The notes under the pieces were generated by a model. That model saw only the letters and a list, made by a program, of their open reading frames with translations. It did not search any database and had not been told where the DNA came from. Below, piece by piece: positions 1,314 through 64,000 of a DNA stretch of 64,000 bases. Within the stretch, counting starts at the first letter, position 1. Each line of letters opens with the position of its first letter. Made by a program: the position numbers and the translations under genes. The DNA comes from Candidatus Falkowbacteria bacterium (GTDB lineage: Bacteria > Patescibacteriota > Patescibacteriia > UBA11705), in NCBI GenBank assembly GCA_003518055.1, contig DOZJ01000004.1:6073-70072 (forward strand), read 5' to 3'.

Positions 1314-2108
1314 ATGCCAAAAACACCCATCTGGTTTCTTTTATCCATAGCCATTTTATTATTGCTGAACCCAACCGAAACTCAGGCTGTAGCCACCCCG
1401 ACCGGCCAATCTTGCACCGCCACATCTGAATGCGATATCACTGACTATTGTTCTTCAGCTCCAAATTCAGTCTGTACGACCAAACTCGCCACCGGATCTT
1501 CTACTCCCTGTCTGAATAATGACATGTGCCAATCAAATTACTGCGATACCTCTGGCATTTTTGATCGCTGCGAAGTCAATCCGAATCCTCCGGCCCCCAC
1601 CCCTGCCGCCTGTACCAGCAGCGCTGACTGCGGCCTCAATCAATACTGCAACACTGCTACCCCGCGCGCCTGCACCGCCCAATTAAATGACAATGCCATT
1701 GGTTGTACTAGCCTTGATATGTGCCAAAGCGGCAACTGCAATCTTACCAACAGCACTTGCGAACCGGCAGCCGGAACACCTGACGTTATCCCAGCCGGTT
1801 CAAGCGGACTGACGCCGAGCGGTAATACTGCCCCCACAACCGTCACCACCCTGCCGAATCCGCTTCGAACCACTTCCATCAATCTGGTTATAGGCCGAAT
1901 CATCCGCTTTGTGATCGGCCTCTCCGGCGCGCTAGCTCTCGTTGTCTTTATCTATGGCGGTTTTCAATGGATTTTTTCTCAGGGCAAATCAGCCAACGTT
2001 GAAAAAGGCAAAAAAGCGATAACCTATTCAATTATCGGTTTGGTAATTATTTTCACCAGTTATATTGTCCTGAAATTCATCACCTCTGCTCTGACCAGTT
2101 TTACCTAA
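1314..2108 (+). CDS. Secreted Cys-rich repeat protein with a C-terminal two-helix membrane module (VirB2/TrbC pilin-like hairpin).
   Basis: Signal peptide MPKTPIWFLLSIAILLLLNPTETQA. Four repeats of C-x3-6-C-x-S/T-x2-C, for example CTSSADCGLNQYC and CLNNDMCQSNYC. C-terminus IGRIIRFVIGLSGALALVVFIYGG...KGKK...IIGLVIIFTSYIVL. Confidence 0.6.
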   Translation: MPKTPIWFLLSIAILLLLNPTETQAVATPTGQSCTATSECDITDYCSSAPNSVCTTKLATGSSTPCLNNDMCQSNYCDTSGIFDRCEVNPNPPAPTPAACTSSADCGLNQYCNTATPRACTAQLNDNAIGCTSLDMCQSGNCNLTNSTCEPAAGTPDVIPAGSSGLTPSGNTAPTTVTTLPNPLRTTSINLVIGRIIRFVIGLSGALALVVFIYGGFQWIFSQGKSANVEKGKKAITYSIIGLVIIFTSYIVLKFITSALTSFT

Positions 2109-2217: not shown

Positions 2218-3279
2218 ATGGAATGGTACAGCATTGCGGGCTTAATCTGTCTTGGATTAGCAATTCTCACTGTTTTGATTTATGGAATTGTTGTCACGTT
2301 CTTCGTCGTTGTAAGACGGCCAAACATTGGCTACCGATATTTTCTCGGCGAACTAACCAGGATTGCCATGCCCGGACTTCGTCTGCGCATTCCCTATCTA
2401 CATCGCATTGATCTTGAAAGTACTGAAACTCGTAAAACCGCGATTGAAATTAAAGAGAGTTTATACACTCAAGATGGTGTTCTTCTGACCGCGGATTTTG
2501 GTATCATTTGGCAAATTGCTCACCCTGCAATACACAAAGGACTAAAGGGGAACTCCCTTTATTATGGTAAAAAATTCCTTGATGCCAAAGTCAATATCGA
2601 ATCTATAATCAAAGAAATCATCATTGATATCGCCCGAACCGGTATTCATGCTTACAAATACGACGACATCAAAGCGCACAAAAAACTAATCATGAACTTC
2701 ATCCGCTATTTCATTCGTTACTTGGCCAATGAAGAAATTAATGAAAACGATAATGATGATCGATCCAGACTTGAAATGTCAGAACAACAAAGAATGGCTG
2801 ATGCAGAAACTGATGGTGTCAACGCAGCTGAACGCGACCAAATCAGACAAATTTTTCTTAAAACCAGAGTATCAATGCCCTCCGTCATTGCGAATAAATC
2901 ACTTCTTGAAGCAGCCGGCATTTATACACTTCGAGTGACAATTGATGACCTCGAGCCTGATCCCTCTGTGGTCAGAGCGCATCAGGACGTCGAAATCGCC
3001 AAAGCGCAAGTCCCGGCGGCTGAAGCCAAAGCCCAAGTGGCTTTGATCGAGGCCAATGCTCAGGCTGAAGTTCAGCGCCGTGTCGGCGCCGGTGAAGCAG
3101 ACCGCCGCAGTCTGTTGTTCAAGGCGGAAATTACCGGCCAAGCAGGACTGGAAGCTGTTCGTACTGAAAATATGCAGCACCGCAAAGCCGCAGGCGTAGG
3201 TGACTGGGCAATCGCGGCCGGTGAGCTGGCTGGCGCTCTCGCCGACAAAGTGAATGGCGCCACTAAAAAGAAAGAATAA
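2218..3279 (+). CDS. SPFH/band-7 (stomatin/prohibitin-like) membrane protein.
   Basis: N-terminal TM segment followed by an SPFH-like core. C-terminal Ala/Glu-rich coiled-coil (AKAQVPAAEAKAQVALIEANAQAEVQRR). Confidence 0.6.
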   Translation: MEWYSIAGLICLGLAILTVLIYGIVVTFFVVVRRPNIGYRYFLGELTRIAMPGLRLRIPYLHRIDLESTETRKTAIEIKESLYTQDGVLLTADFGIIWQIAHPAIHKGLKGNSLYYGKKFLDAKVNIESIIKEIIIDIARTGIHAYKYDDIKAHKKLIMNFIRYFIRYLANEEINENDNDDRSRLEMSEQQRMADAETDGVNAAERDQIRQIFLKTRVSMPSVIANKSLLEAAGIYTLRVTIDDLEPDPSVVRAHQDVEIAKAQVPAAEAKAQVALIEANAQAEVQRRVGAGEADRRSLLFKAEITGQAGLEAVRTENMQHRKAAGVGDWAIAAGELAGALADKVNGATKKKE

Positions 3280-17202: not shown

Positions 17203-18258
17203 CTAAAGCTTGCCGTCAGCGGCCATCTGCATATACTTGGTCGTGAAGCGCAGCTTCACGTTCCTCTTGTCTCCCATCACCGAACCATCCGGCAGCTCAA
17301 TCCCGACTTCATCCTTCGACTTCGCAGTCGGGCCGAACATTCCCTTATCGAAACAGAACGTCCGAACAAACTCCATGGTCTTGGCCAACGTCGCACTGGC
17401 CGTGAATTCAACCGCCGCCTTCGGTGTGTAGTACATGTACGTCGTCTTCAGCTGAGCCTCAAACTCCGCCAGCGTACCACCGGCCGTCTTGGCCATGAAA
17501 GTCAGAGCTTCCTTGGTAGGAGCGCCCTTACCCGACATCACCGCCATGGTCTCATACCAGGCTCCGGTCAGCGCCTTCTTGAGCTCTTCCGGCGCATCGG
17601 TCCTGACCACCAAGAGATCCAGAATCTCTCCGGGGATCTGTGCGCTTGTGAAAAGAACCTTCGCTCCGCGCTCCTGCCGAATCTTCATCACGATCGGGTT
17701 CCAAGTTACGACCGTTGTCTGCGGCGTTCGATTCGCGACGAACAAACCGGCAATTTCACTGTCACTCGTATTCACAAACGCTCCGAGATCAGCCTCGCTC
17801 ATACCGTTCATGGCGAGTGCCCGAGCTACCAGATAGTGACTGACACTGAGCTCAACACCGAAAATATCTCGGCCGCGCAGATCAGCCACGCTCGTCCCAC
17901 TGTAACTCACAATGGCATCATTGCCATCACTGTAATCACCGACGATCACCACCGTCGAGTCCTTGCCTCCTGATGCCGGAACCGTCAGCGCGTCCATGTT
18001 GGTCATGACACATGCATCATAATTTCCGGCCGTATACAGATTGATTGACTCCATGTAATCCATGGGAGGTGACAGCTCAATCGTAATGCCATACTTGTCG
18101 CCCCACTTCTTCAGCGTTCCCGCCTGTTCGGTCTGAGCCCACGGCTCCCAGCCCGTATAATGCGACCACGCCACCTTGTATGTCGTCTTCGCCATCACCG
18201 AACCAGCAAAAATCGTCGCCAGAATCATAGCCGTCAGAGTCAGCAGCATCTTTCTCAT
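17203..18258 (-). CDS. ABC substrate-binding protein (NMT1/SsuA/TauA family).
   Basis: Signal peptide; YKVAWSHYTGWEP...; GDYSDGNDAIV; operon context. Confidence 0.7.
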   Translation of the reverse strand: MRKMLLTLTAMILATIFAGSVMAKTTYKVAWSHYTGWEPWAQTEQAGTLKKWGDKYGITIELSPPMDYMESINLYTAGNYDACVMTNMDALTVPASGGKDSTVVIVGDYSDGNDAIVSYSGTSVADLRGRDIFGVELSVSHYLVARALAMNGMSEADLGAFVNTSDSEIAGLFVANRTPQTTVVTWNPIVMKIRQERGAKVLFTSAQIPGEILDLLVVRTDAPEELKKALTGAWYETMAVMSGKGAPTKEALTFMAKTAGGTLAEFEAQLKTTYMYYTPKAAVEFTASATLAKTMEFVRTFCFDKGMFGPTAKSKDEVGIELPDGSVMGDKRNVKLRFTTKYMQMAADGKL

Positions 18259-18296
18259 GGGCGGTTTCTCCTGTGGTTGTTGGTTGCCCGTTGAGA

Positions 18297-19169
18297 TTAG
18301 CGGTACTTCTCGGCCCGAGCCGCTATGGCTTGCAGGCCGGCGACTACTTCATCCATCGTCGAACCATTGGCGTATTTTTCACCTGTCTTCATTCTTCCAA
18401 TATCTACAGTCCGCATTTCCAGCTGAGTAATAATCTCTTCATTTGCGACCAGCAAATCTTTGATCTGGTCCAGATTATCAATTTTCAACTGCAGCCGATC
18501 GGACAAAGTTTTTACTTCTTTTTCTACTCTCGCGGATGGCGTTTGATTTCTTTGAAGCTGTTCAATCCGAGCTCTGAGAAACCTCTCATCGACCGATCGA
18601 ATCGCTTTGAGTGTCGTCACCACCGCGTTCAAATTATCCAGCACAGTAAAAGCCGCGTTTTCCGCTGCGGCAAAAAACCGCCCGAATGTCAGTTCCCCTG
18701 TCTGCAGCTTCTCCATCAAAAGATCGATTAAATCATTTACGGTCCGGGACACTTGGTCAAACTGCTGAATGCCGCGCTCGACATACTCATTGGCGCCGGC
18801 GATCTCGATGCAGTCTTCCAAATTTTCCCGAATCTGCTGCTTTTTCCACTCATTATATTCTTCTGCTCTCTTGCGAAGCTCCTGCAAATGTTTATAGGTT
18901 AATGCTTCGCCTCGAAAGAAATAATTCACGATCCAGCTGCCCAACCCAACACCGGAGCCGCCAATCGCGGCGTAGATGAAAATCGGCAACGGGCCGAGAA
19001 TCAAACATCCCAACGCTCCAATAATGCCCAAAGCCAATGGGTAGGTGGTCACCGGACTGGTAACCGTCTTTTTCAGCACCTCCGTGCTGATCGCCTTTTC
19101 AGTGTAATCACCAGCCTCAGGCTTGGCTCGCGCTGGAGGCAGTCTTTTGGGTTCCTTTCGCCACCCCAT
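18297..19169 (-). CDS. Membrane protein with two TM segments and a long coiled-coil (XpaC/TelA-like?).
   Basis: Two hydrophobic helices (LALGIIGALGCLILGPLPIFIYAAIGGSGVGLGSWIV) then a roughly 200-aa helical region. Confidence 0.35.
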   Translation of the reverse strand: MGWRKEPKRLPPARAKPEAGDYTEKAISTEVLKKTVTSPVTTYPLALGIIGALGCLILGPLPIFIYAAIGGSGVGLGSWIVNYFFRGEALTYKHLQELRKRAEEYNEWKKQQIRENLEDCIEIAGANEYVERGIQQFDQVSRTVNDLIDLLMEKLQTGELTFGRFFAAAENAAFTVLDNLNAVVTTLKAIRSVDERFLRARIEQLQRNQTPSARVEKEVKTLSDRLQLKIDNLDQIKDLLVANEEIITQLEMRTVDIGRMKTGEKYANGSTMDEVVAGLQAIAARAEKYR

Positions 19170-19183
19170 TTTCCCTCCTTGCG

Positions 19184-20743
19184 CTACAGGTCTTCTCGCA
19201 CCAAAACAATCTCAACTCGAGGTAGACCATACTGCCAATCTCGATATGATTGCCCAGCCTCCCGAATCAAAGGCTGCTCACCCCCAAGCCCATGAGCCAA
19301 ACACCGGTTAAAATCAACATTGTGAGTCACATTCAAATACTGAACCACTGACTCGGCTCGTTCCTGAGACAGCTGCTTGTTGGCCGTAGGGTCGCCTTCA
19401 TTGCTGGTATGCCCCACCACCTTGATCCGATACTGAGGAAAATGCTTCAGCTTCTGCATCAATTTGTCGAGCTCTTCTTTGCCCTCAGTACTCAGCTGGA
19501 ACGTGCCGCTTTGAAATACAATCGGCTGAATTTTCAACGTCCCAACCGGCTGGAGCTTGGCCCAATTTTCCGCTGCCAGAGGTTCAAATTTCATCCCCTG
19601 CGTCAACATCGCTTCCGCGACCGTCGTCGGGGTCTTAACCCCACTATACCCAGCGTATAGATCCTGCAACACTCCACTATAAATAATCTTATAAGGATCC
19701 TCATCCGGCAATGGACTGGCCTTAAAATCATCATTATCAATCAACACATTAACCGTTGATTCAATCACTTCAACCAACACTTCATTCGAATCCTCACCTG
19801 GAGCTGAAATTCCAAACCACTTGGTGCAATTCTGAGACATCGACGGCCAATCCACACCGTCAACCATATCCCTTACTCGCTTCCGATCTGATTTGGTTTC
19901 CGCTTCCAATTCCTTGAACCACTCTTCTTCATTATCCCGATACCACTTTAGCGCTCGGAAATAATTGGACAGGAACAATTTCACTTCCTTTGGATTCTTC
20001 TTGAGAAAATCTCGACTCACCACCAAAATATCAACCACATACCTTTCAGTTTCTTTGGTGCTGAAAATCTTTACCACTCCGGGCTGCTCTAGGGCGCGAG
20101 AAACATCAGGCTCCCAAAGCACCGCCACGTCCGCCTGACCGGAAAGCAGCTTTTGCAGCGCTTCTTCCGATCCCTTGGTTTCAATTCTCATGCCGGTCAA
20201 ACCAGATGGCAAAAGTTCATTCAAATTAAAGTGCGACTTGAGCGCCTTGAGCAGGTAATGACTCGGCGAATCCGGTGTAAAAGCTACGCGTACGCTCTTG
20301 CCGCGAAAATCATCCAGTGATTTTCCCGCTTTTTCCAAAGCTACGACCGCGTCGCCGCCATTTGATTCATCAATCACCGTCACCACCACTCCCGGATAAT
20401 TATGCTTGGCCGCGTTCAGAATATAAGAATCAACCGTCACGACCGCAAAATCAATCTCACCGTCATTCAGCTGTTTCATCCGAGCGTGATAATCAGCCGC
20501 GTCATCAATTACTTTAACTTCCCAGCCGGCCTGACGCATCCGCTTCTTAAATTCCTTGGATCTGAATGGAAAATATCCAACCCAGTTATCAAGGGCGATA
20601 GTAATCTTTCCTTCGACATCCTTGGCATCACTGGTTTCAACCACTTCCGCTTCATCCAACACCGGCTTGGTAAATTTCCACACCAACATCGCAACCACAG
20701 CAACCAACACCAGCAATCCAGCGCCGATCAGCTTCTTATTCAC
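19184..20743 (-). CDS. Fusion protein: N-terminal TM segment, an SsuA/NMT1-like solute-binding domain, and a C-terminal OmpA/MotB-like peptidoglycan-binding domain.
   Basis: The SBP region ITIALDNWVGYFPF...ESNGGDAVVALEKAGKSL is paralogous to 17203..18258. C-terminus IVFQSGTFQLS...VVGHTSNEGDP..N..LSQERA..V..YL (OmpA-like). Confidence 0.6.
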   Translation of the reverse strand: MNKKLIGAGLLVLVAVVAMLVWKFTKPVLDEAEVVETSDAKDVEGKITIALDNWVGYFPFRSKEFKKRMRQAGWEVKVIDDAADYHARMKQLNDGEIDFAVVTVDSYILNAAKHNYPGVVVTVIDESNGGDAVVALEKAGKSLDDFRGKSVRVAFTPDSPSHYLLKALKSHFNLNELLPSGLTGMRIETKGSEEALQKLLSGQADVAVLWEPDVSRALEQPGVVKIFSTKETERYVVDILVVSRDFLKKNPKEVKLFLSNYFRALKWYRDNEEEWFKELEAETKSDRKRVRDMVDGVDWPSMSQNCTKWFGISAPGEDSNEVLVEVIESTVNVLIDNDDFKASPLPDEDPYKIIYSGVLQDLYAGYSGVKTPTTVAEAMLTQGMKFEPLAAENWAKLQPVGTLKIQPIVFQSGTFQLSTEGKEELDKLMQKLKHFPQYRIKVVGHTSNEGDPTANKQLSQERAESVVQYLNVTHNVDFNRCLAHGLGGEQPLIREAGQSYRDWQYGLPRVEIVLVREDL

Positions 20744-20863
20744 ATTTACCTCCTGTGGTTTTGGGTCTCGGCTTTAGACTGAATAATGTAATTGGGACTG
20801 CCGACGAGTTTCACCTCGCCGGCAGCAGAACCGCCGCGCAATTTGGCTGCGATTCAAAAAAAC

Positions 20864-21700
20864 TTACTTCTCAAACTCCGTCACAACGAACTCCTCCGAT
20901 TCAGCCAACACGCCCTTCAGCGCTTCAGCCAATTCCTCGGGTGAATTCGCTTCCTTGTAAATAGTCGTATTCGGCTGATTCAACGTATGACGGTTTCCAA
21001 TGCAAAAACCAATCGTATAAATCACCACCGGCGACTCGGACGTAATCTGGGTTACCAAATGATGCAAAGAATATTCATCATTGGCGATACCATCAGTTAC
21101 CACGACAATCATATATTCACCGTAGCCAAGCTGTTTGACCGCTTCCTTGTTAATCGCCTGATAAGCCAAGTGCAGCGCTTCGGTCAGCGGTGTCCCACCT
21201 CCATCACGAGCACTATTGACCTCAACAATAAACTTTTCTCGATTATTCAACCCCAGAGATACCAGCTGCCGTGGATCAGAACGCTGATCGAACAGCACAA
21301 AACCCAAATTGGCATCAGCTGGTACACTCCGAGAAAAAGCCTCAATCGCGCGTTTGGCAACAGTCAACTTACTCTCAGAACTTGAACATCCTCTCTCAGC
21401 CATACTACCTGAACTATCAAGGATAACCAAGTAATTCTTCGTCGTCCAAAGTTCGCTCGGCGAGACTTCCCGATTATCAACCGGCGCGAACGGCCAAGCC
21501 GTTTCCCGCGTTGGATTCACCACCGGAGCCACCGGCTCAACCGGCTGCGGTTCCGCCCGATAAGGCGCCGAGGCCGGTGAAGGAGATGGACTCGAACTAT
21601 GCGGAGCGTAATACTCCTGCTTCTTCCTGCAACCAAGTACCGCCAAACCAATAACCACCATCGACCACAAAGTAATCTTGATTGTGTTATTCATCGTCAT
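20864..21700 (-). CDS. von Willebrand factor type A (VWA) domain lipoprotein.
   Basis: Lipobox LAVLGC; MIDAS motif LVILDSSGSM; GGGTPLTEAL; VVVTDG; Pro-rich linker. Confidence 0.75.
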   Translation of the reverse strand: MTMNNTIKITLWSMVVIGLAVLGCRKKQEYYAPHSSSPSPSPASAPYRAEPQPVEPVAPVVNPTRETAWPFAPVDNREVSPSELWTTKNYLVILDSSGSMAERGCSSSESKLTVAKRAIEAFSRSVPADANLGFVLFDQRSDPRQLVSLGLNNREKFIVEVNSARDGGGTPLTEALHLAYQAINKEAVKQLGYGEYMIVVVTDGIANDEYSLHHLVTQITSESPVVIYTIGFCIGNRHTLNQPNTTIYKEANSPEELAEALKGVLAESEEFVVTEFEK

Positions 21701-21712
21701 TGGTCACCTCCC

Positions 21713-23428
21713 TCAGAGCGGCTTAAAGGCTGAAGCCTCAGCCTCCATGGAGATTAGGCGAAAATCCACCCGCATATTCTCCCGCCACTGCTGCTCCGTC
21801 TTGGGAGCGCAGGGATCGGCTCCGCACATACCGCTCCGCGGCTGCTCGAAGCCATGACCAACAACCGTAAACTGCGTCGGATCAAGCGTGACACCCTTGG
21901 ACGCGGCGTACTGAATAATCGAATCGCGAACAGTCATTGATCGCTGAACTGTAAGGCTCTTGGCAACCTGCCGCACCTGAGTCAGAATGACCTGTGGATC
22001 TCCGGCCTTCTTCTTGCGCAGATACCCCATCGGATCAGCATTCCCTTCAATAACAATCACCGCGCCGCCCAAAACTGCCGCCTGTGCAATGATCTGATCG
22101 TATTCATCCTGATAACGAGCAGCGGAAAAATCAATCTGGTTGGGCTCAAAGAAAATCGAACTGGTCGGGAGAATCTGATCAGAATCCAAAGTTCCGGTCC
22201 GCAATCGCGTGTCCACGACCGCTGCCACCCGTTCCTCATCGAAGAGCGGCTTTTCAGCCAGAATCTGCAGCTTGGCGCCGGAGCCCATCAACGAGTAGTC
22301 CCATTCGGCATGAGTGAGTGCTACCGTCGCGGCCATCAGTCCGAGGTCGCGGAAAGCCGACTGAATGTCAGCCACCACTTCCCGGAAACTGCGCCGAGCA
22401 CCCGCGCCGGAAAAAAACCTCTGATTTTCACCAATGTCGGAGAAAGTGCAGTCAGCATACATCGCCCCCGCGTCTTCCACCGCCTTGTCACTTCCGAGAA
22501 TAATCTTGGCAAACGCCTTGACCAGATCTCGGTATTCCTGCTTGCCCGCCTTGACCACGGCCGCCATATCCTGGCCAGCCCTGAGCATGGTCTGAGCAAA
22601 CGCGTAAACAGTTTCCTTGTGCGCGTTGAAGTAATCGCTTCTAACCGCAAACACATCGAAAATCACATGGTCAGCACTCTTGGTCGACAACAGAATACGC
22701 GCGCCCTTGACCGAACCCTCGGCACCGGTTCCAACCGTGCCGTTGCTCGACAGAGCCAGCGCGTCCGGGATAATGGCAAACGCCACATCAGCCTGACCGC
22801 GCCTGAGCGCCTCAGCCGCCGTCTTGTCCGAAGCCGTAAGGTCATCAGTCCAAACCAGCTTGACATCAGAAACACTGAGATTCACTGACTTGAGAATGCG
22901 CCAGAGATAGTACATATGCGGACCATAGGCCTGCAGCGCCACGCGCTTGCCCTTGAAATCCGCCGCCGTCTTGATGCCTTCGGTCACGACCACAGCGTCA
23001 CCGCCGGTTGACCGAGTCAGAAGCAGCACTACCACGGGCTGCACCCGAGGATCGCTCTTCGTCGCCTCTGTCACCGCGTTGATCATGTCGAGCGTGCCGC
23101 GCAGATATGGCGTCTTGCCGGACATATAATCCTTGAACTGCTGTCGGAAATCGTCCTGCAGCGTGATATCAAAACACAGCCCCGCCTGAGCAAAAAGAGA
23201 GCCGGACTTGGTCCGCTTCTCATTGCCATTGGCAAAAACCGTTTCATATTCACCACCCCAGGTAATCACCGGCAGCTGCACACAATCACTTGGAGTCACC
23301 TCTCCGACTGACACATGAACATCCTGCCAAATCGGCTTGAGCTGCTGAGCTGAAACCTGATTCGACACCAACGTCACCGCCAAAATCGCCCACAGACACC
23401 ACCTTCTCATGTCTCCCTCCTGCCCCAC
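21713..23428 (-). CDS. Secreted SsuA/NMT1-like solute-binding domain fused to a C-terminal OmpA-like domain. Paralog of 19184..20743.
   Basis: Signal peptide; LLTRSTGGDAVVVTEGIKTAADFKGKRV parallels ESNGGDAVVALEKAGKSLDDFRGKSV; C-terminus IFFEPNQIDFS...VIEGNADPMG...VVGHGFEQP. Confidence 0.6.
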   Translation of the reverse strand: MGQEGDMRRWCLWAILAVTLVSNQVSAQQLKPIWQDVHVSVGEVTPSDCVQLPVITWGGEYETVFANGNEKRTKSGSLFAQAGLCFDITLQDDFRQQFKDYMSGKTPYLRGTLDMINAVTEATKSDPRVQPVVVLLLTRSTGGDAVVVTEGIKTAADFKGKRVALQAYGPHMYYLWRILKSVNLSVSDVKLVWTDDLTASDKTAAEALRRGQADVAFAIIPDALALSSNGTVGTGAEGSVKGARILLSTKSADHVIFDVFAVRSDYFNAHKETVYAFAQTMLRAGQDMAAVVKAGKQEYRDLVKAFAKIILGSDKAVEDAGAMYADCTFSDIGENQRFFSGAGARRSFREVVADIQSAFRDLGLMAATVALTHAEWDYSLMGSGAKLQILAEKPLFDEERVAAVVDTRLRTGTLDSDQILPTSSIFFEPNQIDFSAARYQDEYDQIIAQAAVLGGAVIVIEGNADPMGYLRKKKAGDPQVILTQVRQVAKSLTVQRSMTVRDSIIQYAASKGVTLDPTQFTVVGHGFEQPRSGMCGADPCAPKTEQQWRENMRVDFRLISMEAEASAFKPL

Positions 23429-28778: not shown

Positions 28779-30170
28779 TCAAACCCCTTTAATGTGTAAT
28801 TCATTTAAAACTTCTTTTGATATTTCGCTCGGGGCCCCCATCATCAAATCCTTAGCGTCACCAGTTTTAGGAAACGCAATTACTTCTCGGATATTCTTTT
28901 CATTTAAAAGTATCGCGATGAGACGGTCCAGCCCTAATGCGATTCCACCATGTGGAGGCGGGGCGAAGCTAAAAGCCTCAAGCAAATGCCCAAAACGTAA
29001 ACTAATCTCAGTTTCATTTAATCCTAATATTTGGAACACCTTCTTTTGTAAATCACGTTCAAATATTCTTAGACTTCCGCCACCAACTTCAAACCCATTT
29101 AAGACAAGATCATATGCCTCCGCCCGCACCTTTTCTGGTTTTTCTTCCATCATGTTAATATCATCATTTTTTGGTCGAGTAAATGGATGGTGCACCGAAA
29201 CCATTTTTTTCTCCGTATCGCTATATTCAAATAAAGGGAAATCGATAATCCAACCGAATGCCAATAAATTTGGATCTTGCTCTGTGCGCAAGTCCGGTTT
29301 ATCACTTTTATACAATTTTTGTGCTTCCATATATGTTAAGCGTGGAAATGGTATTTGCTGCATTCTTAAATTCGGGAAAAGCTCTTTCACCAAATCAATC
29401 ATGGCTTTTTCTATCAATTGCAAGATATCTTCTTGATCTATAAAAGACATTTCTAAGTCAAATTGGGTAAATTCCGGTTGACGATCACCACGCTGATCTT
29501 CATCACGAAAACAGCGAACAACCTGGTAATAACGTTCAATTCCAGCAACCATTAGCAACTGCTTAAACTGTTGTGGTGATTGTGGTAAAACATAAAAATT
29601 CCCTTTATGAATCCGAGAAGGGATAACGAATTCGCGCGCACCCTCTGGCGTTCCCTTGGTCAGATAAGGCGTCTCAATTTCCCAGAAACCTTGTTTCGAA
29701 AAATAATTGCGTAAAAACAAATTTATTTCTTGCCTCTTTTTCAAATTGTTTTTTACTCGTTCACTACGAATATCCAAATACCGATATTTCAATCGCATGC
29801 CCTCACTCAATTCAAGAGTATTCTGCTCAACTTCAAAAGGCAAAGCTTCAGACTCTGAAATAATAAAAATATTTAAGACTAAAATTTCAATTCGATCCAG
29901 CTGCACTACAAAACTCTTTTGTTTATCACCCCTTTTTTGTACAATTCCGTTTATTTCAACCAACCAACCCAATCGAACGTTGCTCAAGACATCAATTGAG
30001 TGTTGATCCAAATCATTACCTACGCCGACTACCTGAACTACACCCGAACGATCCCTAATGTCTAAAAAAACAATCTTGCCCATATTACGTCTAGCTGCAA
30101 CCCAACCCTTAATCCAAACCGTCTCCCCTATTTTGCTGACTGCTTCTTCTAAAAAAATGTATTTACTCAT
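28779..30170 (-). CDS. aspS: Aspartyl-tRNA synthetase (compact form of 463 aa).
   Basis: FRDEDQRGDRQPEFTQFDLEMSF (class IIb motif 2, bacterial AspRS type); OB-fold N-terminus; motif 3 GGGSLRI. Confidence 0.8.
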   Translation of the reverse strand: MSKYIFLEEAVSKIGETVWIKGWVAARRNMGKIVFLDIRDRSGVVQVVGVGNDLDQHSIDVLSNVRLGWLVEINGIVQKRGDKQKSFVVQLDRIEILVLNIFIISESEALPFEVEQNTLELSEGMRLKYRYLDIRSERVKNNLKKRQEINLFLRNYFSKQGFWEIETPYLTKGTPEGAREFVIPSRIHKGNFYVLPQSPQQFKQLLMVAGIERYYQVVRCFRDEDQRGDRQPEFTQFDLEMSFIDQEDILQLIEKAMIDLVKELFPNLRMQQIPFPRLTYMEAQKLYKSDKPDLRTEQDPNLLAFGWIIDFPLFEYSDTEKKMVSVHHPFTRPKNDDINMMEEKPEKVRAEAYDLVLNGFEVGGGSLRIFERDLQKKVFQILGLNETEISLRFGHLLEAFSFAPPPHGGIALGLDRLIAILLNEKNIREVIAFPKTGDAKDLMMGAPSEISKEVLNELHIKGV

Positions 30171-35292: not shown

Positions 35293-36588
35293 TTACGGCG
35301 TTATCCGATTTATCATCCTCGGAAATGGAATAGTCTCCCTCACATGATGAATACCGCACATCCAGCGGGTCAATCTTTCAATCCCCATACCAAAACCGCA
35401 ATGAGGCACTGATCCGTATTTGCGCAAATCCAAATACCACTCAAAATCCGCCATTGGCAATTTCGCTTCTTCCATTCGTTGTTTTAATACCTGATAATCA
35501 TCTTCTCTCTGCGACCCGCCGATAATTTCCCCAAACCCTCTCGCCGCCAGCATGTCCGCGTTCAAAACCAAATCAGGATTGGCCGGATGCCGTTTCATGT
35601 AAAATGGTTTTATTTCTTTCGGCCAATTTTTCACTATAACAGGAACTGCCGAATCATTGGTCAATAATTCTTCATCATCAGCGCCAAGATCATCGCCATA
35701 TTTAATATCTGAACCGCGTTTTTGCAGTTCTTCAATCGCCGCCCCGTATTCATAATGAATAAACGGCTGATCAACAATCGCTTGAAGTTCTGTGGTGTCG
35801 CGTTCCAACATCTTCAATTCTTCCTGACCGTGCTCTAAAACATATTTTGCCAAATACTTAACTGCCGCTTCTTGAATTTTCAAACTGTCTTCATGCTCGC
35901 AAAAAGCGATTTCCGGATTCAATGACCAAAACTCCGTTAAATGTTTTCGGGTCTTTGATTTTTCCGCTCGAAAATTTGGACATAAATCATAAACTTTACC
36001 AAAAGACATTGCTAAGGCTTCCAAATATAGCTGCCCATTCTGAGTTAAGTAAGCTTTCCGATCAAAATACTCCACTTCAAACAAATCCGAGGTACCTTCA
36101 CAGCTTGTCGGCGTAAATGTCGGCGTATCCAACTCTTTATATCCATTATTATTAAAAAATTCCTGCAATCCCATTTTTACCAGATGACGAATTCGCAGCA
36201 CCGCCCACTGACTTTGCGCCCGGAGCCACAAATGTCTATTGTTCAACAAAAAATCCGGTCCATGCTCTTTCTTGCCGATCGGATATTCCTCCGCTATCTG
36301 AACAATCTTCAAATCAGTCACCTGCAATTCAAAAACATCATCTTGCTTCGGATGCTTTGTCACTTTACCCTGAATTTCCACCGATGATTCCAGCGTCAAC
36401 TTTTCCACCTGAACCCAAATTTCCGACGATAACTGATCTTTCACCGCTACCGCCTGAGCAAAACCGCTGCCGTCGCGGACTTGCAAAAAGGCAATTGCTC
36501 CTGAAGACCGCAAATTATAAACCCAGCCCTTGATTAAAACTGTTTGATCTTGGTTGTCTCTAAAATCTTTGATGTAGCTCTGCTGCAT
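35293..36588 (-). CDS. asnS: Asparaginyl-tRNA synthetase.
   Basis: FRAEKSKTRKHLTEFWSLNPEIAF (AsnRS motif 2); motif 3 GFGMGIERL. Confidence 0.8.
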   Translation of the reverse strand: MQQSYIKDFRDNQDQTVLIKGWVYNLRSSGAIAFLQVRDGSGFAQAVAVKDQLSSEIWVQVEKLTLESSVEIQGKVTKHPKQDDVFELQVTDLKIVQIAEEYPIGKKEHGPDFLLNNRHLWLRAQSQWAVLRIRHLVKMGLQEFFNNNGYKELDTPTFTPTSCEGTSDLFEVEYFDRKAYLTQNGQLYLEALAMSFGKVYDLCPNFRAEKSKTRKHLTEFWSLNPEIAFCEHEDSLKIQEAAVKYLAKYVLEHGQEELKMLERDTTELQAIVDQPFIHYEYGAAIEELQKRGSDIKYGDDLGADDEELLTNDSAVPVIVKNWPKEIKPFYMKRHPANPDLVLNADMLAARGFGEIIGGSQREDDYQVLKQRMEEAKLPMADFEWYLDLRKYGSVPHCGFGMGIERLTRWMCGIHHVRETIPFPRMINRITP

Positions 36589-39546: not shown

Positions 39547-40095
39547 TCAACTGCGCCTTTCGCAACCGACAGAACCATGTTTTACCGCGTTATATCGAAT
39601 ATAATGACGAATCCGTTCCAATGATTTTTCATCACGAATAATGTGATCATGATATGATCGTTGCCATTTAAAATTTAACCAACCTGATTGATGGATTAAT
39701 TTGGATGCGGCGGATTTAAACGATCCAATTATCACCGGCAATTTTTCATAATTATGATTATTAATTACCACCGGTAAATGTAGGTGCAAGGTATGCCTTG
39801 CACCTACATTTACGTTGCCGGTCCCAATCACATCATCCAAATTTTTAATAAATAAAATACCATGAACATGATCCGGTAATACGTTAAATTCATCTATTTC
39901 CACTATTTCAAAATGTCGCTCTAGCTCCACCCAACATTTTTTCACCCATTCTCCGTATTGATTTAGTTTCATTTCTCCCTCGATAATTCTACCCAAATCA
40001 AAACTCCCGCGCCTCACTTTGATCGTCACAAAATAATAACCATATCGGCCGTAATTCCAACCGTCCAAACGCCTTGATTTATATTCATTAAACAT
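39547..40095 (-). mobile_element. tnpA: IS200/IS605-family (HuH Y1, RAYT-like) transposase TnpA gene.
   Basis: YYFVTIKVRR; HuH motif LPDHVHGILFI; C-terminal SYHDHIIRDE...YIRYNAVKHG. It carries an unusual insert of about 30 aa between the HuH motif and the IIGSFKS helix. Confidence 0.65.
39774..39813. repeat. A perfect 18-bp inverted repeat (gtaaatgtaggtgcaagg / ccttgcacctacatttac) with a 4-nt loop, lying inside the tnpA coding sequence.
   Basis: Read directly from the sequence. It maps onto the extra GNVNVGARHTLHLHLP segment of TnpA. Confidence 0.85.
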
Positions 40096-59297: not shown

Positions 59298-60194
59298 TTA
59301 TCTCAACCCAAACCTCTCAATATTCTCATCCGCCTGCTTCTGCATTCGTTTGATAATTTTTTTACCCTCTTCATTATTACCCAAATGACGGAATCGTCCT
59401 TGCAGCTCCAAAAATCTCTCGACCCGTGGCGTCTCATTTGGGACTTTCATCACTGACGATAACCTTCCATTTACGTATTCAAACACCGGATACAAACCGG
59501 TTTCCTGCGCCAGCTTTGCCACTTTTATTGCGTTGCACGCCTCCACATTCCATCCGGGCGCGCACGTTGAATAAACCTGAATATATCTCGGCCCTTTGAT
59601 CGCCGCCGCTTTTTTTACTTTTTCCCGAAAATCACTCAAATCACCGACCGTCGCAGTTGCCACATATGGCAACCCATGAGCCAGAGCAATCGCCGGCAGA
59701 TCTTTTTTATGAAGCAGGTTGCCGGTGGAAAAACTCGTCGCCGGCGTCGTCATGGTATACGATCCAATCGGCGTCGAACCGCTCGACTGCGCGCCAGTAT
59801 TCATATACGCCTCATTGTCATAACAAATATACAAAATATTATCGCCTCGGGTCCACGCCCCGGAATTCAACGCCAATCCGATATCAAAGAAAAAACCATC
59901 TCCGCCGTGAACAACCACATTGACATCGTCTTGTTTTTTCCGTTTTAACATCGCCAAAACACCTGTCGCCACCGGCGCCGGATTTTCAAACAATGAATGA
60001 ATATACGGCACACGAAAAACTGACGCCGGATATTTTGTCGTCGTCACCTCGGAACAGCCGGTCGCGCCGCACACGATTGTTTTGTCGCCGAGCGTATTCA
60101 CCGCCATGGTCAAAGCGACAATCATGCCGCAGCCCACACACGCAGTATGACCGGGCGCGATGAGACTATATGATTTTTCTTTTTTTATCTTCAT
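59298..60194 (-). CDS. porB: Pyruvate/2-oxoacid:ferredoxin oxidoreductase beta subunit (TPP-binding).
   Basis: CVGCGM (Cys cluster); GGDGFFFDIG (TPP GDG motif); 298 aa. Confidence 0.85.
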   Translation of the reverse strand: MKIKKEKSYSLIAPGHTACVGCGMIVALTMAVNTLGDKTIVCGATGCSEVTTTKYPASVFRVPYIHSLFENPAPVATGVLAMLKRKKQDDVNVVVHGGDGFFFDIGLALNSGAWTRGDNILYICYDNEAYMNTGAQSSGSTPIGSYTMTTPATSFSTGNLLHKKDLPAIALAHGLPYVATATVGDLSDFREKVKKAAAIKGPRYIQVYSTCAPGWNVEACNAIKVAKLAQETGLYPVFEYVNGRLSSVMKVPNETPRVERFLELQGRFRHLGNNEEGKKIIKRMQKQADENIERFGLR

Positions 60195-60196
60195 AC

Positions 60197-62107
60197 CTAT
60201 TTACACAGTCTGAGTGAACCAATAAGCGCTAGCTCCTCACACTTTTTTCCGGTTGGACAATCATTATCACCCCGGCAACCACAAACGCGTTTCCCCATAA
60301 ACTCAGGAAAATACTGACTTCTGGAAGGATTATTACAAAGGTTTGTTAAACACTGGTCAGCATCATCACACTCTGCTCCATATGACCGCCTCTCAAGACA
60401 ACGGCCGCCCACAGTTTCATCAATCTTACAATATTGTTCATCATCACAATCTTCGTCATCATCACAACCGCAGGTTCCTTTTTGACAAGAATCGGACAAA
60501 CATTCCCAATCGTCATCACACGCCTGTGTTATAGTCTTCCCCGGAACACAGGTATTTTGCATCCCCGAATTTTCTTTACACAGCATCCCTTCAGGACAAC
60601 TCCCATCATTCGGACTGCATTCACAAATCCCCGTGGCATCATAGCAATCACCGCTGATACACCCATCATCCCCTCGATCGCCACAAGCAGTGCCGGACGG
60701 AACCTTGTCTGTAGTAGAACAAACCCCCCAATTTCCGGTATCCACACATATTTTCCCAAACGGACAATCCGCCGTGCTATTGCATGAACATCTATAGGTA
60801 ATTATTTCTTGATCACTGACTTGTTCTGAAGCAACACAACTGCCTTTTATACATTCAGAATCATTTCCAGTACAAACATTCCCGATCGGAATACTGCCTT
60901 TTGTAACATAACATTCATCATCCTCATAAGAATGTCCATCTTTATCTACCATATCCGCTATCGGTTTATCACCGCAAAACAATTTTCGTGTATCCACATC
61001 AATACTAATCGCTGTTTTATCAGTCCCCACCAATTCATTCCTATTGATCAAATCGCAACCTTCGGTTATCACCAACCGCCCATCTCCACCACAGCTGTAT
61101 TTACAGCAAATAGAACCATCAATTCCAATCGGATTGCCATATCTATCTATTGAATATGAATGATCCCAACTTGGACCAAAAGCCGGAGTATTGGATTCAA
61201 TTGATAAATAATAAGTTTGAGCATTAAATTCATCGCTTCCGACCCAATTTGGCAAAACATCATTCTGACCAATGGAATAATTTGTTTTCTCAGAATAAAA
61301 ACGCGCCAACCCCATTTGAGTATCCTCTGCACCAATTCTATTAGCTTTCAATCTGACATAATCCACGTATGCTTCGGGATATTCAATTATATCTCCATAA
61401 ACATAAGCGAAAACACATTGATATGTCCCATCAAACTGATCACAGGCATCAGTTGGATTATCACATTTACTAGATATACATGTTTTTTGAGTCAAATTCA
61501 TCTGCACGCCACGCTCAACAGCTTTATTGTATTCAATTTCATATGTTTTTCCATCTCCGCATTTGGCCGTCGCCGGGTCATATCCCTTGATCGTAAACAT
61601 GGTCTGATCCAATCTTTCACAAAACTTCGAATCACCGGTCACAATTTCAATTCGTTTCACCTGTTCCACCTCAATCGACGGCAGCTTGGTTAAATCCGGA
61701 TTAATTTGATACAAAATTAAATATGACCCGAATAAAATCACCATGCCGAACAACGATGATAATATATACCCCTTGGCCTTGGAGACACTGCCCGGGTTCA
61801 CCCCGGCTGTGAGATACATCAACCCGCCGACGATTATCATCAACACCGAGAACATCGCCCCGATCCGTAAACCATAAAAATAAATCGCTCCGATATATTG
61901 CGCGATCCACGGAATTTTCGTGCAATCATTATCCGGATTGTTCGAACACGGCCCGACAATCGGCTCATCCAATTTGGTTAAATCGCCGATCGGTACATTC
62001 AGCGTCACATCACGGATATCCGCCGCGAGTGCCATCGCCACATCGAGCACGGTAAATAAAACAAACACCGTGATAAATAAAATTAGCAATTTATTTTTGT
62101 TTTTCAT
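60197..62107 (-). CDS. Large Cys-rich surface protein with an N-terminal VirB2/TrbC-like two-helix membrane module. Paralog of 1314..2108 with the module order swapped.
   Basis: N-terminal IAQYIGAIYFYGLRIGAMFSVLMIIVGGLMYLTAGV...KAKGYILSSLFGMVILFGSYLILYQI aligns to the C-terminus of the 1314..2108 protein. The C-terminal half carries many Cys modules such as CDDDWECLSDSCQKGTCGC and CDDADQCLTNLC. Confidence 0.6.
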   Translation of the reverse strand: MKNKNKLLILFITVFVLFTVLDVAMALAADIRDVTLNVPIGDLTKLDEPIVGPCSNNPDNDCTKIPWIAQYIGAIYFYGLRIGAMFSVLMIIVGGLMYLTAGVNPGSVSKAKGYILSSLFGMVILFGSYLILYQINPDLTKLPSIEVEQVKRIEIVTGDSKFCERLDQTMFTIKGYDPATAKCGDGKTYEIEYNKAVERGVQMNLTQKTCISSKCDNPTDACDQFDGTYQCVFAYVYGDIIEYPEAYVDYVRLKANRIGAEDTQMGLARFYSEKTNYSIGQNDVLPNWVGSDEFNAQTYYLSIESNTPAFGPSWDHSYSIDRYGNPIGIDGSICCKYSCGGDGRLVITEGCDLINRNELVGTDKTAISIDVDTRKLFCGDKPIADMVDKDGHSYEDDECYVTKGSIPIGNVCTGNDSECIKGSCVASEQVSDQEIITYRCSCNSTADCPFGKICVDTGNWGVCSTTDKVPSGTACGDRGDDGCISGDCYDATGICECSPNDGSCPEGMLCKENSGMQNTCVPGKTITQACDDDWECLSDSCQKGTCGCDDDEDCDDEQYCKIDETVGGRCLERRSYGAECDDADQCLTNLCNNPSRSQYFPEFMGKRVCGCRGDNDCPTGKKCEELALIGSLRLCK

Positions 62108-62225: not shown

Positions 62226-63425
62226 TTACTTCAACATTTTTTCAAAAATTACTCGTATTTCTTCTTTCGTAATATCTCTGCCCCCGAGTCCCATTGAATA
62301 TGATTTGATTTCCGCTGAACTTTTGCCGTAAAGCGCTGCTTTGACTTCCAAATCCAACCCGCCGGTACTGCCAAACGCGATATCTTTTTCTATAATCGCG
62401 ATTTTTTCGCAACCATTCAATACTTCACCTATTTCCTTTTTGGGAAACGGCCGGAACATCACCACATTCACCACCCCCACCCCCCTGTCACCCTGCTTGT
62501 CCCCCTGGTTTATCCTCTCTCGCTTGTCACCATGCTTGTCCGCCGAAACGCTAGTGAAGGCGGAAGGCTCTCGAAGGGTCGAGTTCAATTCATCCACCGT
62601 GTCTTTTATCGTTCCGACCACTGACCCGAAAGAAATTATCACCGCCTCCGGCTTTTTGGCGCCGTAATATTCAACCGATTTATACTCACGGCCGAAAACC
62701 TGTTTAAATTTTTTATTTTCTTTTATAAACAATCCTTCAGCCGCCAGCAAATCCTGCTGCAGCTCTTGTCTGAATTCCTGATAATGCTCCGGCGTCACGA
62801 ACGCGCCCAAAGTCACCGGATGATTAACGTCCAAAATCGTATTCTTCGCCGCTTTATATCTCGGCAGAAATTGTCTTATCTGATTTTTACTCGGGACATC
62901 AACCGGCTCAACCGTATGCGTCAAAATAAAGCCATCCATATTCACCACCGCCGGCACTCTTAATTCTTCCGCCATTCTATAAGCTATGATATGCAAATCC
63001 ACCGCCGCCTGATTATCCTCGGCAAAAAGCATCATCCACCCAGCGTCGCGCATGGCCATCGCGTCCTGCTGGTCATTCCAGATATTGATCGGCGCCGACA
63101 CCGCCCGATTGGCGAGCGTCATCACCACTGGCAGCCTGAGCCCGGCCGTCGCGTAGACCACCTCCATCATCAGGAGTAATCCCTGCGCGCTTGTGGCCGT
63201 ATACGTCCGCCCGCCGGCCGCCGCCGCCCCCTGCACAATTGACGCGGCCGCGAACTCACTGTCAGCTTGAATAAATTCAAAATCCGCCCGATGGGAATTT
63301 TTCAGCCACGCGAGATATTCCACTATATGTGTTTGCGGGGTGATCGGATACGAGGCGACGACATCCGGCTGGCAATTCGCCACCGCGCTCGCTACCGCTT
63401 CCGAACCCTCAATGCATTTTTTCAT
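62226..63425 (-). CDS. porA: Pyruvate/2-oxoacid:ferredoxin oxidoreductase alpha subunit.
   Basis: GSEAVASAVANCQPDVVASYPITPQT; typical domain order. It carries an in-frame insertion of about 38 aa at about residues 281-318. Confidence 0.85.
   Translation of the reverse strand: MKKCIEGSEAVASAVANCQPDVVASYPITPQTHIVEYLAWLKNSHRADFEFIQADSEFAAASIVQGAAAAGGRTYTATSAQGLLLMMEVVYATAGLRLPVVMTLANRAVSAPINIWNDQQDAMAMRDAGWMMLFAEDNQAAVDLHIIAYRMAEELRVPAVVNMDGFILTHTVEPVDVPSKNQIRQFLPRYKAAKNTILDVNHPVTLGAFVTPEHYQEFRQELQQDLLAAEGLFIKENKKFKQVFGREYKSVEYYGAKKPEAVIISFGSVVGTIKDTVDELNSTLREPSAFTSVSADKHGDKRERINQGDKQGDRGVGVVNVVMFRPFPKKEIGEVLNGCEKIAIIEKDIAFGSTGGLDLEVKAALYGKSSAEIKSYSMGLGGRDITKEEIRVIFEKMLK
62472..62585. repeat. 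Repeat-like insertion inside porA that preserves the reading frame. It shares tgtcaccctg and ctctcgaagggt motifs with the intergenic sequence at 63430-63480.
   Basis: The encoded segment NSTLREPSAFTSVSADKHGDKRERINQGDKQGDRGVGV has no counterpart in PorA family proteins. The nucleotide motifs were matched by eye. Confidence 0.5.
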
Positions 63426-63515
63426 AATTTTTATACTTTGTCACCCTGAGCCTGCCTACCCTGAGACTCTCGAAGGGTTACACTCGTTCGACAACTTCAA
63501 CATGACACAAAAAAT

Positions 63516-64000
63516 TTAATTTAATTCCCTTTTTAGCTCTCTAATAAGTTTAATATTTTTTTCCAGAATCTCCGGCCGATCGTGAAAAACTTCCTTCACC
63601 GCTTTGATCACATTCTCCAATTTGATTAACCCTGTTTGCTGGGCAAACCAATAAACCATGGCTGTATTGACAATATCCCGACCCAAAAACTTCTTGACTA
63701 CTGATGCCATATCATAAACCACGACCGTAATCATTTTATTTTTGGGTTTATAATCAACGGCATTGGCAAAAACCAACCCTTTTTTCTTCAACCCATCAAA
63801 CACATCAACCTGATCAAACAACCGCTGATCGAACACCAACAAATAATCCGGCTCATAGATATGCGCTCTGAGTCTAATCGGCTTATTATCAATTCTAACA
63901 TATGACTCCACCGGCGCCCCGCGTCTTTCAACCCCAAAAAAAGGAAACGCCTGCACTTGGTGACCTTCATAAAACGCGGCCTTTGCCAGCATCTCTGCCG
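63516..64000 (-). CDS. porC: Pyruvate/2-oxoacid:ferredoxin oxidoreductase gamma subunit; N-terminus beyond the window.
   Basis: AEMLAKAAFYEGHQVQAFPFFGVERRGAPV; the frame is open to the window edge. Confidence 0.75.
   Translation of the reverse strand, partial: AEMLAKAAFYEGHQVQAFPFFGVERRGAPVESYVRIDNKPIRLRAHIYEPDYLLVFDQRLFDQVDVFDGLKKKGLVFANAVDYKPKNKMITVVVYDMASVVKKFLGRDIVNTAMVYWFAQQTGLIKLENVIKAVKEVFHDRPEILEKNIKLIRELKRELN

Follow-up and report, generated by a model that had tools for sequence, protein, structure and literature searches.

Between the porA and porB genes of a Candidatus Falkowbacteria genome from a groundwater metagenome lies a gene for a large, cysteine-rich protein of 636 amino acids (aa), which carries near its N-terminus a membrane hairpin related to the pilins of type IV secretion systems (T4SS). 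The gene occupies positions 60197..62107 on the minus strand of the 64,000-nucleotide (nt) stretch of contig DOZJ01000004.1 analysed here (the window). It was identified in an open reading frame (ORF) listing and by an exact database match to HCC23331.1, deposited as a 'hypothetical protein'. With a probability of about 0.6, we regard its product as a hairpin-anchored, DsbA-folded, fast-evolving surface protein, whose conserved operon position gives co-expression with POR. The protein would be exported by Sec, lose its signal peptide and be anchored in the cytoplasmic membrane through a helical hairpin of the VirB2/TrbC type, with both ends facing outward and a short Lys-rich loop in the cytoplasm. 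The hairpin would present about 500 residues of an acidic, disulfide-stabilised ectodomain, in which a lineage-specific domain comes before four 8-Cys modules. A second protein of the window (264 aa) is built from these two parts as well, but has its Cys modules N-terminal of the hairpin. The approximately 23 disulfides are probably made by a membrane-anchored DsbA, whose gene stands first in the cluster. The place between porA and porB, apparently inherited within a Patescibacterial clade, most likely serves to have the gene expressed together with a constitutive operon, and the hairpin gene would have no part in pyruvate oxidation. The ectodomain is probably adhesin-like, contacting the host cell or the environment.

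The large protein starts with a predicted Sec signal peptide (residues 1-28, 62024..62107, minus strand) marked by KNKNK, a hydrophobic core and ALA|AD, with the hydropathy peak at residues 7-25. The putative cleavage site was read by eye, and the N-terminus is conserved among homologs. A short acidic segment predicted to lie outside (residues 29-67, 61907..62023, minus strand; net charge -4) contains a conserved LNVPIG motif and the invariant Cys pair C54/C62, as seen from the invariant columns in two family alignments (A1 and A7). The VirB2/TrbC-like two-helix hairpin follows (residues 68-142, 61682..61906, minus strand) and reads PWIAQYI, GG, a Lys-rich loop and SYLILYQINPDL. AlphaFold2 (AF2) places its helices at residues 68-100 and 105-135, matching two hydrophobic segments, and the loop has a charge of +2. 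The copy in a corresponding ENA contig (L001) differs from the window copy by two residues in helix 1 (GGLMY versus GGVVY), a strain-level variation. Past helix 2 stands an N-P-x-L motif; among 15 family members, N136 and P137 never vary and L139 hardly does.

The hairpin is followed by a lineage-restricted middle domain (residues 146-400, 60908..61672, minus strand) with seven Cys residues that are invariant in the family alignment (C163, C183, C210, C215, C222, C231 and C334) and with an AF2 confidence (predicted local distance difference test, pLDDT) mostly below 50. This domain is rare, with 16 clusters found among 1.84 billion representative proteins, and in all 13 clusters whose sequences were read (P0002, P0003 and 11 fetched) it belongs to hairpin proteins of 406-912 aa. 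The acidic C-terminal part (residues 401-636, 60200..60907, minus strand; pLDDT 66-76) comprises four tandem 8-Cys modules at about residues 412-635, recognised from Cys spacing and a repeat hidden Markov model (HMM). The last 32 of the 46 Cys residues of the protein make up these four units, spaced approximately C-5/6-C-5-C-8/9-C-9/11-C-5/7-C-4-C-4..17-C. The AF2 model of the full protein, based on an alignment of eight sequences, has a mean pLDDT of 54.7. All of its Foldseek matches in the PDB had E > 0.1 (PI3K C2, efflux adaptors, fn3 and Dkk4) and were regarded as meaningless.

An earlier reading of the sequence (the preliminary description) had aligned the hairpin residue by residue with the C-terminus of the 264-aa protein, which is encoded at 1314..2108 on the plus strand and was also deposited as a 'hypothetical protein' (HCC23273.1). 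BLASTP confirmed this alignment, matching residues 68-142 of the large protein to residues 189-263 of the small one without gaps, at 29% identity and E 7e-9. The Smith-Waterman score of the two hairpins is 91, compared to 30 ± 6 for full shuffles (z ~10) and 32 ± 6 for shuffles within helix and loop blocks. Because none of 2000 shuffles attained 91, the similarity exceeds what hydrophobic composition gives. No third copy of the hairpin was found in a search across the window.

The small protein matches the Pfam family PF18895 (T4SS_pilin) with 41.9 bits against a cut-off of 26.6, over residues 186-256 and model positions 2-71 of 71. The large protein is tied to PF18895 by its BLASTP match to the small protein and by its relatives P0005-P0007, which are annotated with this family; seven of the 15 members of its own family match PF18895 at E ≤ 0.01. 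In a family set made up of the window hairpins and those of related loci (28 in all), 27 matched PF18895, and six matched TrbC (PF04956) at E ≤ 0.01 (best E 3.6e-6). The small protein scored 21.7 bits with TrbC (E 2.5e-4), below the cut-off of 27.9. The NCBIfam model NF045849, a 'pilin-like conjugal transfer protein' of integrative and conjugative elements (ICEs) of Mycoplasma, matched 22 of the 28 at E ≤ 0.01. Its cut-off of 40 bits was not reached by the small protein (21 bits, E 2e-4), and the large protein gave no match; judged from these scores, the hairpins appear related to NF045849 at the superfamily level only. As a classical reference, we took six annotated plasmid VirB2/TrbC genes, each flanked by a VirB1-like (lytic transglycosylase) gene and virB3. 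The hairpin profile aligned to them in hhalign with 79.8% probability (E 1.4e-5) over 61 columns, with both helices in register. This alignment scored 32.1; 60 block-shuffled controls averaged 11.2 ± 2.3 (maximum 18.1), and a reversed alignment reached 14.9. Remote homology of the hairpin to VirB2/TrbC is likely on this profile evidence, at a level short of curated PF04956 membership.

At the level of structure, the hairpin profile had no match at E ≤ 10 among PDB sequences. Foldseek of the small-protein model returned nothing from the PDB at E ≤ 0.001, the models being of low confidence and a helical hairpin too simple a fold; the conjugation pilus of A. pernix (8dfu) ranked sixth with a non-significant E of 4.4. 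The non-significant Foldseek matches, mostly to unrelated helical hairpins, and the empty PDB profile search would suit an ordinary two-pass membrane protein with a generic transmembrane composition. Against it, the sequence and profile scores lie far above composition- and block-preserving shuffles, and three independent curated models match repeatedly across the family. We consider this explanation extremely improbable, as it is refuted by the shuffle controls. The VirB2/TrbC-like module proposed in the preliminary description is thus supported by PF18895, NF045849 and hhalign: profile similarity to VirB2/TrbC and identity above shuffles were found, and a significant fold match was not. It does not represent the new family suggested there, since the PF18895 pilins of Patescibacteria have already been described (PMC12102498, PMC12857230).

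The two proteins of the window also share their Cys modules. In the small protein, a signal peptide (residues 1-25), read from the sequence and below the hydropathy threshold, precedes two 8-Cys modules (residues 34-149, 1413..1760, plus strand), a Pro/Thr/Ser linker (residues 150-188) and the C-terminal PF18895 hairpin (residues 189-264, 1878..2105, plus strand), assigned by Pfam and by AF2 helices at residues 189-220 and 226-262. The mean pLDDT of its model is 57.1, with 71-82 in the hairpin helices. Its modules, recognised from Cys spacing and the repeat HMM, hold 16 Cys in two units spaced C-5-C-5-C-7-C-10/11-C-5-C-4-C-6/8-C, nearly identical to the spacing in the large protein. A repeat HMM made from 18 repeats, all of the large protein's family, gave two matches in the small protein that span the whole model (residues 34-79 and 100-143). 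It scored 34.2, and the best of 500 shuffles -4.5; an earlier repeat HMM from three repeats had given no match to this protein. The shared modules claimed in the preliminary description are therefore real, and so is the reversed order, with the Cys modules first in the small protein and the hairpin first in the large one. The likeness to Dickkopf-N or EGF-like knots seen there stayed below threshold: with Dickkopf_N (PF04706, a 10-Cys domain with a cut-off of 25 bits) the large protein scored 16.6 bits and the small one 10.8 bits, and the units have eight Cys. The best Dickkopf_N match in a family member had E 6.4e-6.

The description of the small protein as a domain-swapped paralog holds for the shared modules and their reversed order, but 'paralog' overstates the relation, as the hairpins belong to different subfamilies. 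A tree of about 60 hairpins, made by neighbour joining, places the small protein among short array-type pilins that end directly past helix 2, and the large one among hairpins found inside large proteins, which have PWIAQYI ahead of helix 1 and the invariant N-P-x-L past helix 2. Judged by this tree, the two proteins are not recent paralogs, and the 'domain swap' is more aptly described as a pair of architectures within one superfamily. All homologs of the small protein carry PF18895. Its ortholog retains the same relA/spoT-pilin-Band7 neighbourhood, and a remoter relative is a member of a five-gene PF18895 array; members of such arrays have 120-504 aa, and some are Cys-rich.

In the membrane, VirB2 and TraA form a hairpin with both ends outside. 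Each window protein has two hydrophobic segments, an inter-helix loop with a charge of +2 or +3, and acidic flanks, which is consistent with the same topology. The two module orders would then be topologically equivalent, because both hairpin ends would face outward, and the reversal would be trivial in this respect since either end could carry an outside domain. The ectodomains contain 8.9-9.9% Cys and have net charges of -40 and -8.

The position of the large gene is conserved as well. In the window, as the preliminary description had it, the gene lies between porA and porB on their strand, which is the minus strand. The stop codon of porA (62226..63425; POR_N and PFOR_II) is 118 nt upstream, and porB (59298..60194; TPP_enzyme_C) starts 2 nt past the stop codon of the hairpin gene. 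No terminator was found between porA, the hairpin gene and porB, and a single weak terminator-like site lies inside the hairpin gene (61178..61161). The gene porC (POR gamma, Pfam POR; 63516..63992, minus strand) is cut by the window end, beyond which a membrane-anchored DsbA gene stands directly upstream of it (Thioredoxin_4/DSBA, then POR, in contig L001). Wherever a contig carries a large-protein homolog, this homolog is encoded between porA and porB. A scan of GTDB species genomes with family motifs produced 24 loci, nine of which (L005, L007-L011, L014, L016 and L017) have the order porC-porD-porA, one or two Cys-rich hairpin genes and porB; in seven of the nine (L008-L011, L014, L016 and L017), an extra Cys-rich hairpin gene follows porB. 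A membrane-anchored DsbA precedes porC at every por locus containing a hairpin gene, and DsbA is also directly upstream of the hairpin genes in three loci that have no por genes (L013, L018 and L020).

As a control, metagenomes were scanned with porA motifs, yielding 80 loci. Where DsbA lies upstream and both porA and porB are present, hairpin genes fill the porA-porB gap in 10 of 11 loci, the exception being L033. None of the 60 por loci without DsbA has a hairpin gene there; their porA-porB gaps are mostly 50-320 nt long, with six longer ones of 567-1940 nt. This supports the preliminary description in seeing the insertion as a departure from a tight por operon. Other genomes share the insertion, and it belongs to a DsbA-linked cluster conserved across a clade, which that description had overlooked. 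Identity across loci is 27-39% for the hairpin proteins and 43-69% for porA and porB, indicating that the inserted gene evolves faster than its neighbours in the same loci, at a pace that is typical of surface proteins.

Several details of the por genes were noted in passing. In this genome, the gap between porC and porA is 90 nt (63426..63515) and lacks porD, the ferredoxin-like delta subunit gene, and tblastn of the whole window gave no match to porD. It is present between porC and porA in all related clusters examined (L002, L005, L007-L011, L014, L016 and L017). The porA product has 399 aa, compared to 378-392 aa in nine of ten relatives, the ORF in L010 having 413 aa counted from the first start codon; it seems to bear a charged low-complexity insertion (around SADKHGDKRERINQGDKQGDRG) ahead of the PFOR_II domain. 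Three loci (L055, L070 and L088) have porA-porB gaps of 1.5-1.9 kb with no ORF of at least 70 aa on the por strand (table 11) and a partial porB match; possible explanations include another genetic code, an opposite-strand gene, and an intron or intein. In L029, a close por relative, an RmlA-like nucleotidyltransferase gene, not a hairpin gene, is located between porA and porB (2450..3262).

The conserved position and the translational-coupling distance to porB could suggest a POR partner, with the hairpin protein tethering POR to the membrane or linking it through its cysteines to an extracellular redox process. A locus that retains hairpin genes upstream of an orphan porB (L117) would fit this proposal. 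However, only about 10 residues of the hairpin protein would face the cytoplasm, and the gene is absent from all 60 por operons outside the DsbA-linked group as well as from the DsbA-linked locus L033. Since the unrelated RmlA-like gene occupies the same site in L029, this site seems to tolerate insertions, and hairpin proteins with DsbA are also found without por. We consider a role as a POR partner very improbable; a POR subunit or membrane tether was rejected, given the absence of the gene from the 60 DsbA-less loci and the lack of any POR-related Pfam match in the large protein.

Relatives of the large protein carry other cargo on the hairpin. Word-indexed homolog searches by its single sequence and by a profile recovered an identical set of eight proteins. 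P0005 joins the same hairpin subtype to an SLT domain and P0008 to a phage-lysozyme domain, and in P0009 the Cys modules flank the hairpin on both sides, in agreement with an outward position of both hairpin ends. In L117 (5241..12623), three Cys-rich hairpin genes, one with an SLT_3/SLT fusion, lie upstream of the orphan porB; porA and porC are absent nearby, and an AAA_14/DUF4143 ATPase gene is found among the hairpin genes. L118 (10001..21068) encodes two tandem hairpin proteins, one of them fused to a phage-lysozyme domain, with radA, recG, a comF-like gene, VirB4 (AAA_10/P-loop_TraG), a TraC-like gene and PrgI as neighbours. The lysozyme fusion P0008, which has the hairpin subtype of the large protein, is encoded about 7 kb from VirB4, TraC-like and PrgI genes, and this neighbourhood of recG, radA and comF with T4SS genes matches the T4SS setting of the ABY1 class (PMC12102498).

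The setting of P0008 is one reason to consider a minor or tip pilin. According to this explanation, a T4SS would extract the hairpin from the membrane into a VirB2-like pilus and display the Cys-rich head as a host-binding adhesin. The hairpin is homologous to VirB2-like pilins, PF18895 arrays include larger and Cys-rich members, and the Patescibacterial pilin arrays are essential in S. epibionticum, for which a pilus has been proposed (PMC12857230, PMC12102498). However, no T4SS Pfam families were found among the approximately 50 ORFs of the window, nor in the flanking 10 kb that L001 and L109 cover; the preliminary description had suggested looking for such genes elsewhere in the genome. Both pilin termini lie on the outer surface of the solved conjugative pili (F and T pilus), and a terminal fusion could therefore be displayed on a pilus. 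A 500-aa head on each subunit is incompatible with pilus packing, and the large protein could be at most a minor pilus component for this reason. Its hairpin also groups apart from the array pilins, and lytic enzymes on the same hairpin fit an anchor better. Pilus display is the more interesting reading compared to a membrane anchor, and has perhaps one chance in its favour for every few against, so we hold it tentatively as a secondary possibility.

The N-P-x-L motif suggests a further explanation, a processed precursor cleaved after helix 2 to free either a Cys-rich protein in soluble form or a short pilin as the mature product. The C-terminal trimming of RP4 TrbC provides an analogy; the invariance of N136 and P137 and near-invariance of L139, and the array-type pilins that stop directly past helix 2, would agree with cleavage. 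However, no protease gene is linked to the cluster, and the motif may merely cap the helix at the membrane surface; we consider processing unlikely. Somewhat less doubtful, though still speculative, is a broader view of the VirB2-like hairpin as a modular handle, by which the Patescibacterial T4SS would lift disulfide-rich adhesins and wall-degrading enzymes onto a pilus-like fibre or tip toward the host, with N-P-x-L as a junction or processing site and the dsbA-por embedding tying production to core energy metabolism. If true, this would be a pilin-fusion display system without a described counterpart in conjugative T4SS.

Several points weigh against the favoured reading of a hairpin-anchored surface protein. 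The large protein itself scores 18.3 bits with PF18895 as a whole and 22.8 bits as an isolated hairpin, both under the cut-off of 26.6. Its putative topology is read from hydropathy and charge. Since AF2 modelled both proteins poorly (mean pLDDT 54.7 and 57.1) and a significant structural match was found for no part of them, the function of the ectodomain is a guess. The wider gene order is also conserved (RNase J, substrate-binding protein, SecG, DsbA, por, ABC and UvrA), and the position may thus carry no functional meaning and partly represent inertia. The DsbA-linked loci probably form one clade, so the DsbA and hairpin counts are not independent events.

The rest of the window holds housekeeping genes, including relA/spoT, parAB, IMPDH, tRNA synthetases, uvrA and ABC transporters. 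A run of three NMT1/phosphonate-type substrate-binding proteins with a VWA-domain protein is encoded at 17203..23428; the binding protein at 19184..20743 is fused to an OmpA-family domain. Such a wall-binding domain on a binding protein is an unusual feature in a bacterium that presumably has a single membrane. At 28779..30170 and 35293..36588, two genes for class II (Asp/Asn/Lys-type) tRNA synthetases stand 5 kb apart on either side of a sugar-modification cluster (epimerase, aminotransferase and GFO/IDH oxidoreductase). A 182-aa ORF at 39547..40095 has a weak, sub-threshold match to an IS200-like Y1 transposase (21.5 versus 23 bits).

Patescibacteria are host-dependent, and the T4SS and VirB2-like pilin arrays are essential in the one species tested (PMC11665869, PMC12857230). 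A hairpin-anchored surface protein would mean that large, disulfide-rich surface proteins of fast evolution, as well as lytic enzymes, also use the pilin hairpin as the part nearest the membrane, and that such surface proteins travel with a DsbA gene. The list of candidates for host interaction would then grow; most of these proteins are annotated as 'hypothetical' and score under the Pfam cut-off. A testable hypothesis also follows, anchor versus pilus-displayed head. The interrupted por operon provides a handy genomic marker for the clade and an unusual case of a surface-protein gene fixed within a core metabolic operon. Neither a por-embedded pilin-like gene nor its DsbA link was found for these bacteria in the literature searched, which was partial and gives weak evidence of novelty; the large-ectodomain architecture, the orphan middle domain and the dsbA-por embedding were likewise not found described there, the hairpin family itself being known.

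Among known systems, the closest are the VirB2-like pilins of Patescibacteria, which occur in arrays of 2-11 divergent genes and are essential in Ca. Southlakia epibionticum, the one species tested (PMC12102498, PMC12857230). Like these PF18895 pilins, the window proteins have a signal peptide and a hairpin of two helices that contains GG and a basic loop, and the small protein scores above threshold and has relatives in arrays. In contrast, the hairpin of the large protein is near the N-terminus with about 500 further residues, scores below the cut-off and belongs to a separate PWIAQYI/INPxL subgroup, and neither window gene sits in an array or near T4SS genes. With the Mbov_0395 and MMCAP2_0565 proteins (NF045849, Mycoplasma ICEs) and pLS20_p028, the likeness consists of the 22 matching hairpins among 28, and it agrees with the proposal that the T4SS of Patescibacteria has a monoderm (MPF-FATA) ancestry (PMC12102498). 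However, the scores lie below the equivalog cut-off, and the NF045849 proteins are short and ICE-borne.

The TrbC/VirB2 pilins (PF04956; Agrobacterium VirB2 and RP4 TrbC) share with the window proteins the hhalign register over both helices and the predicted membrane topology. They are about 70 residues long when mature, are encoded beside virB1, virB3 and virB4, and polymerise into a pilus. The window proteins score below threshold, have a large ectodomain attached (about 500 residues after the hairpin in the large protein and about 160 residues before it in the small one) and lack a T4SS neighbourhood. Dickkopf_N and knottin domains also consist of short, Cys-dense modules, and non-significant Foldseek matches pointed to spider knottins and Dkk4. 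However, the units found here have eight Cys compared to 10 in Dickkopf_N and six in knottins, and the matches of the window proteins are below the cut-off or non-significant. Gram-positive T4SS possess membrane-anchored, VirB1-like cell-wall hydrolases, such as TraG of pIP501 and PrgK of pCF10. The hairpin fusions of P0005 and P0008 to SLT or lysozyme domains, the latter near VirB4 and PrgI, resemble these enzymes, whereas the window protein has, instead of a hydrolase domain, the orphan domain and the Cys modules.

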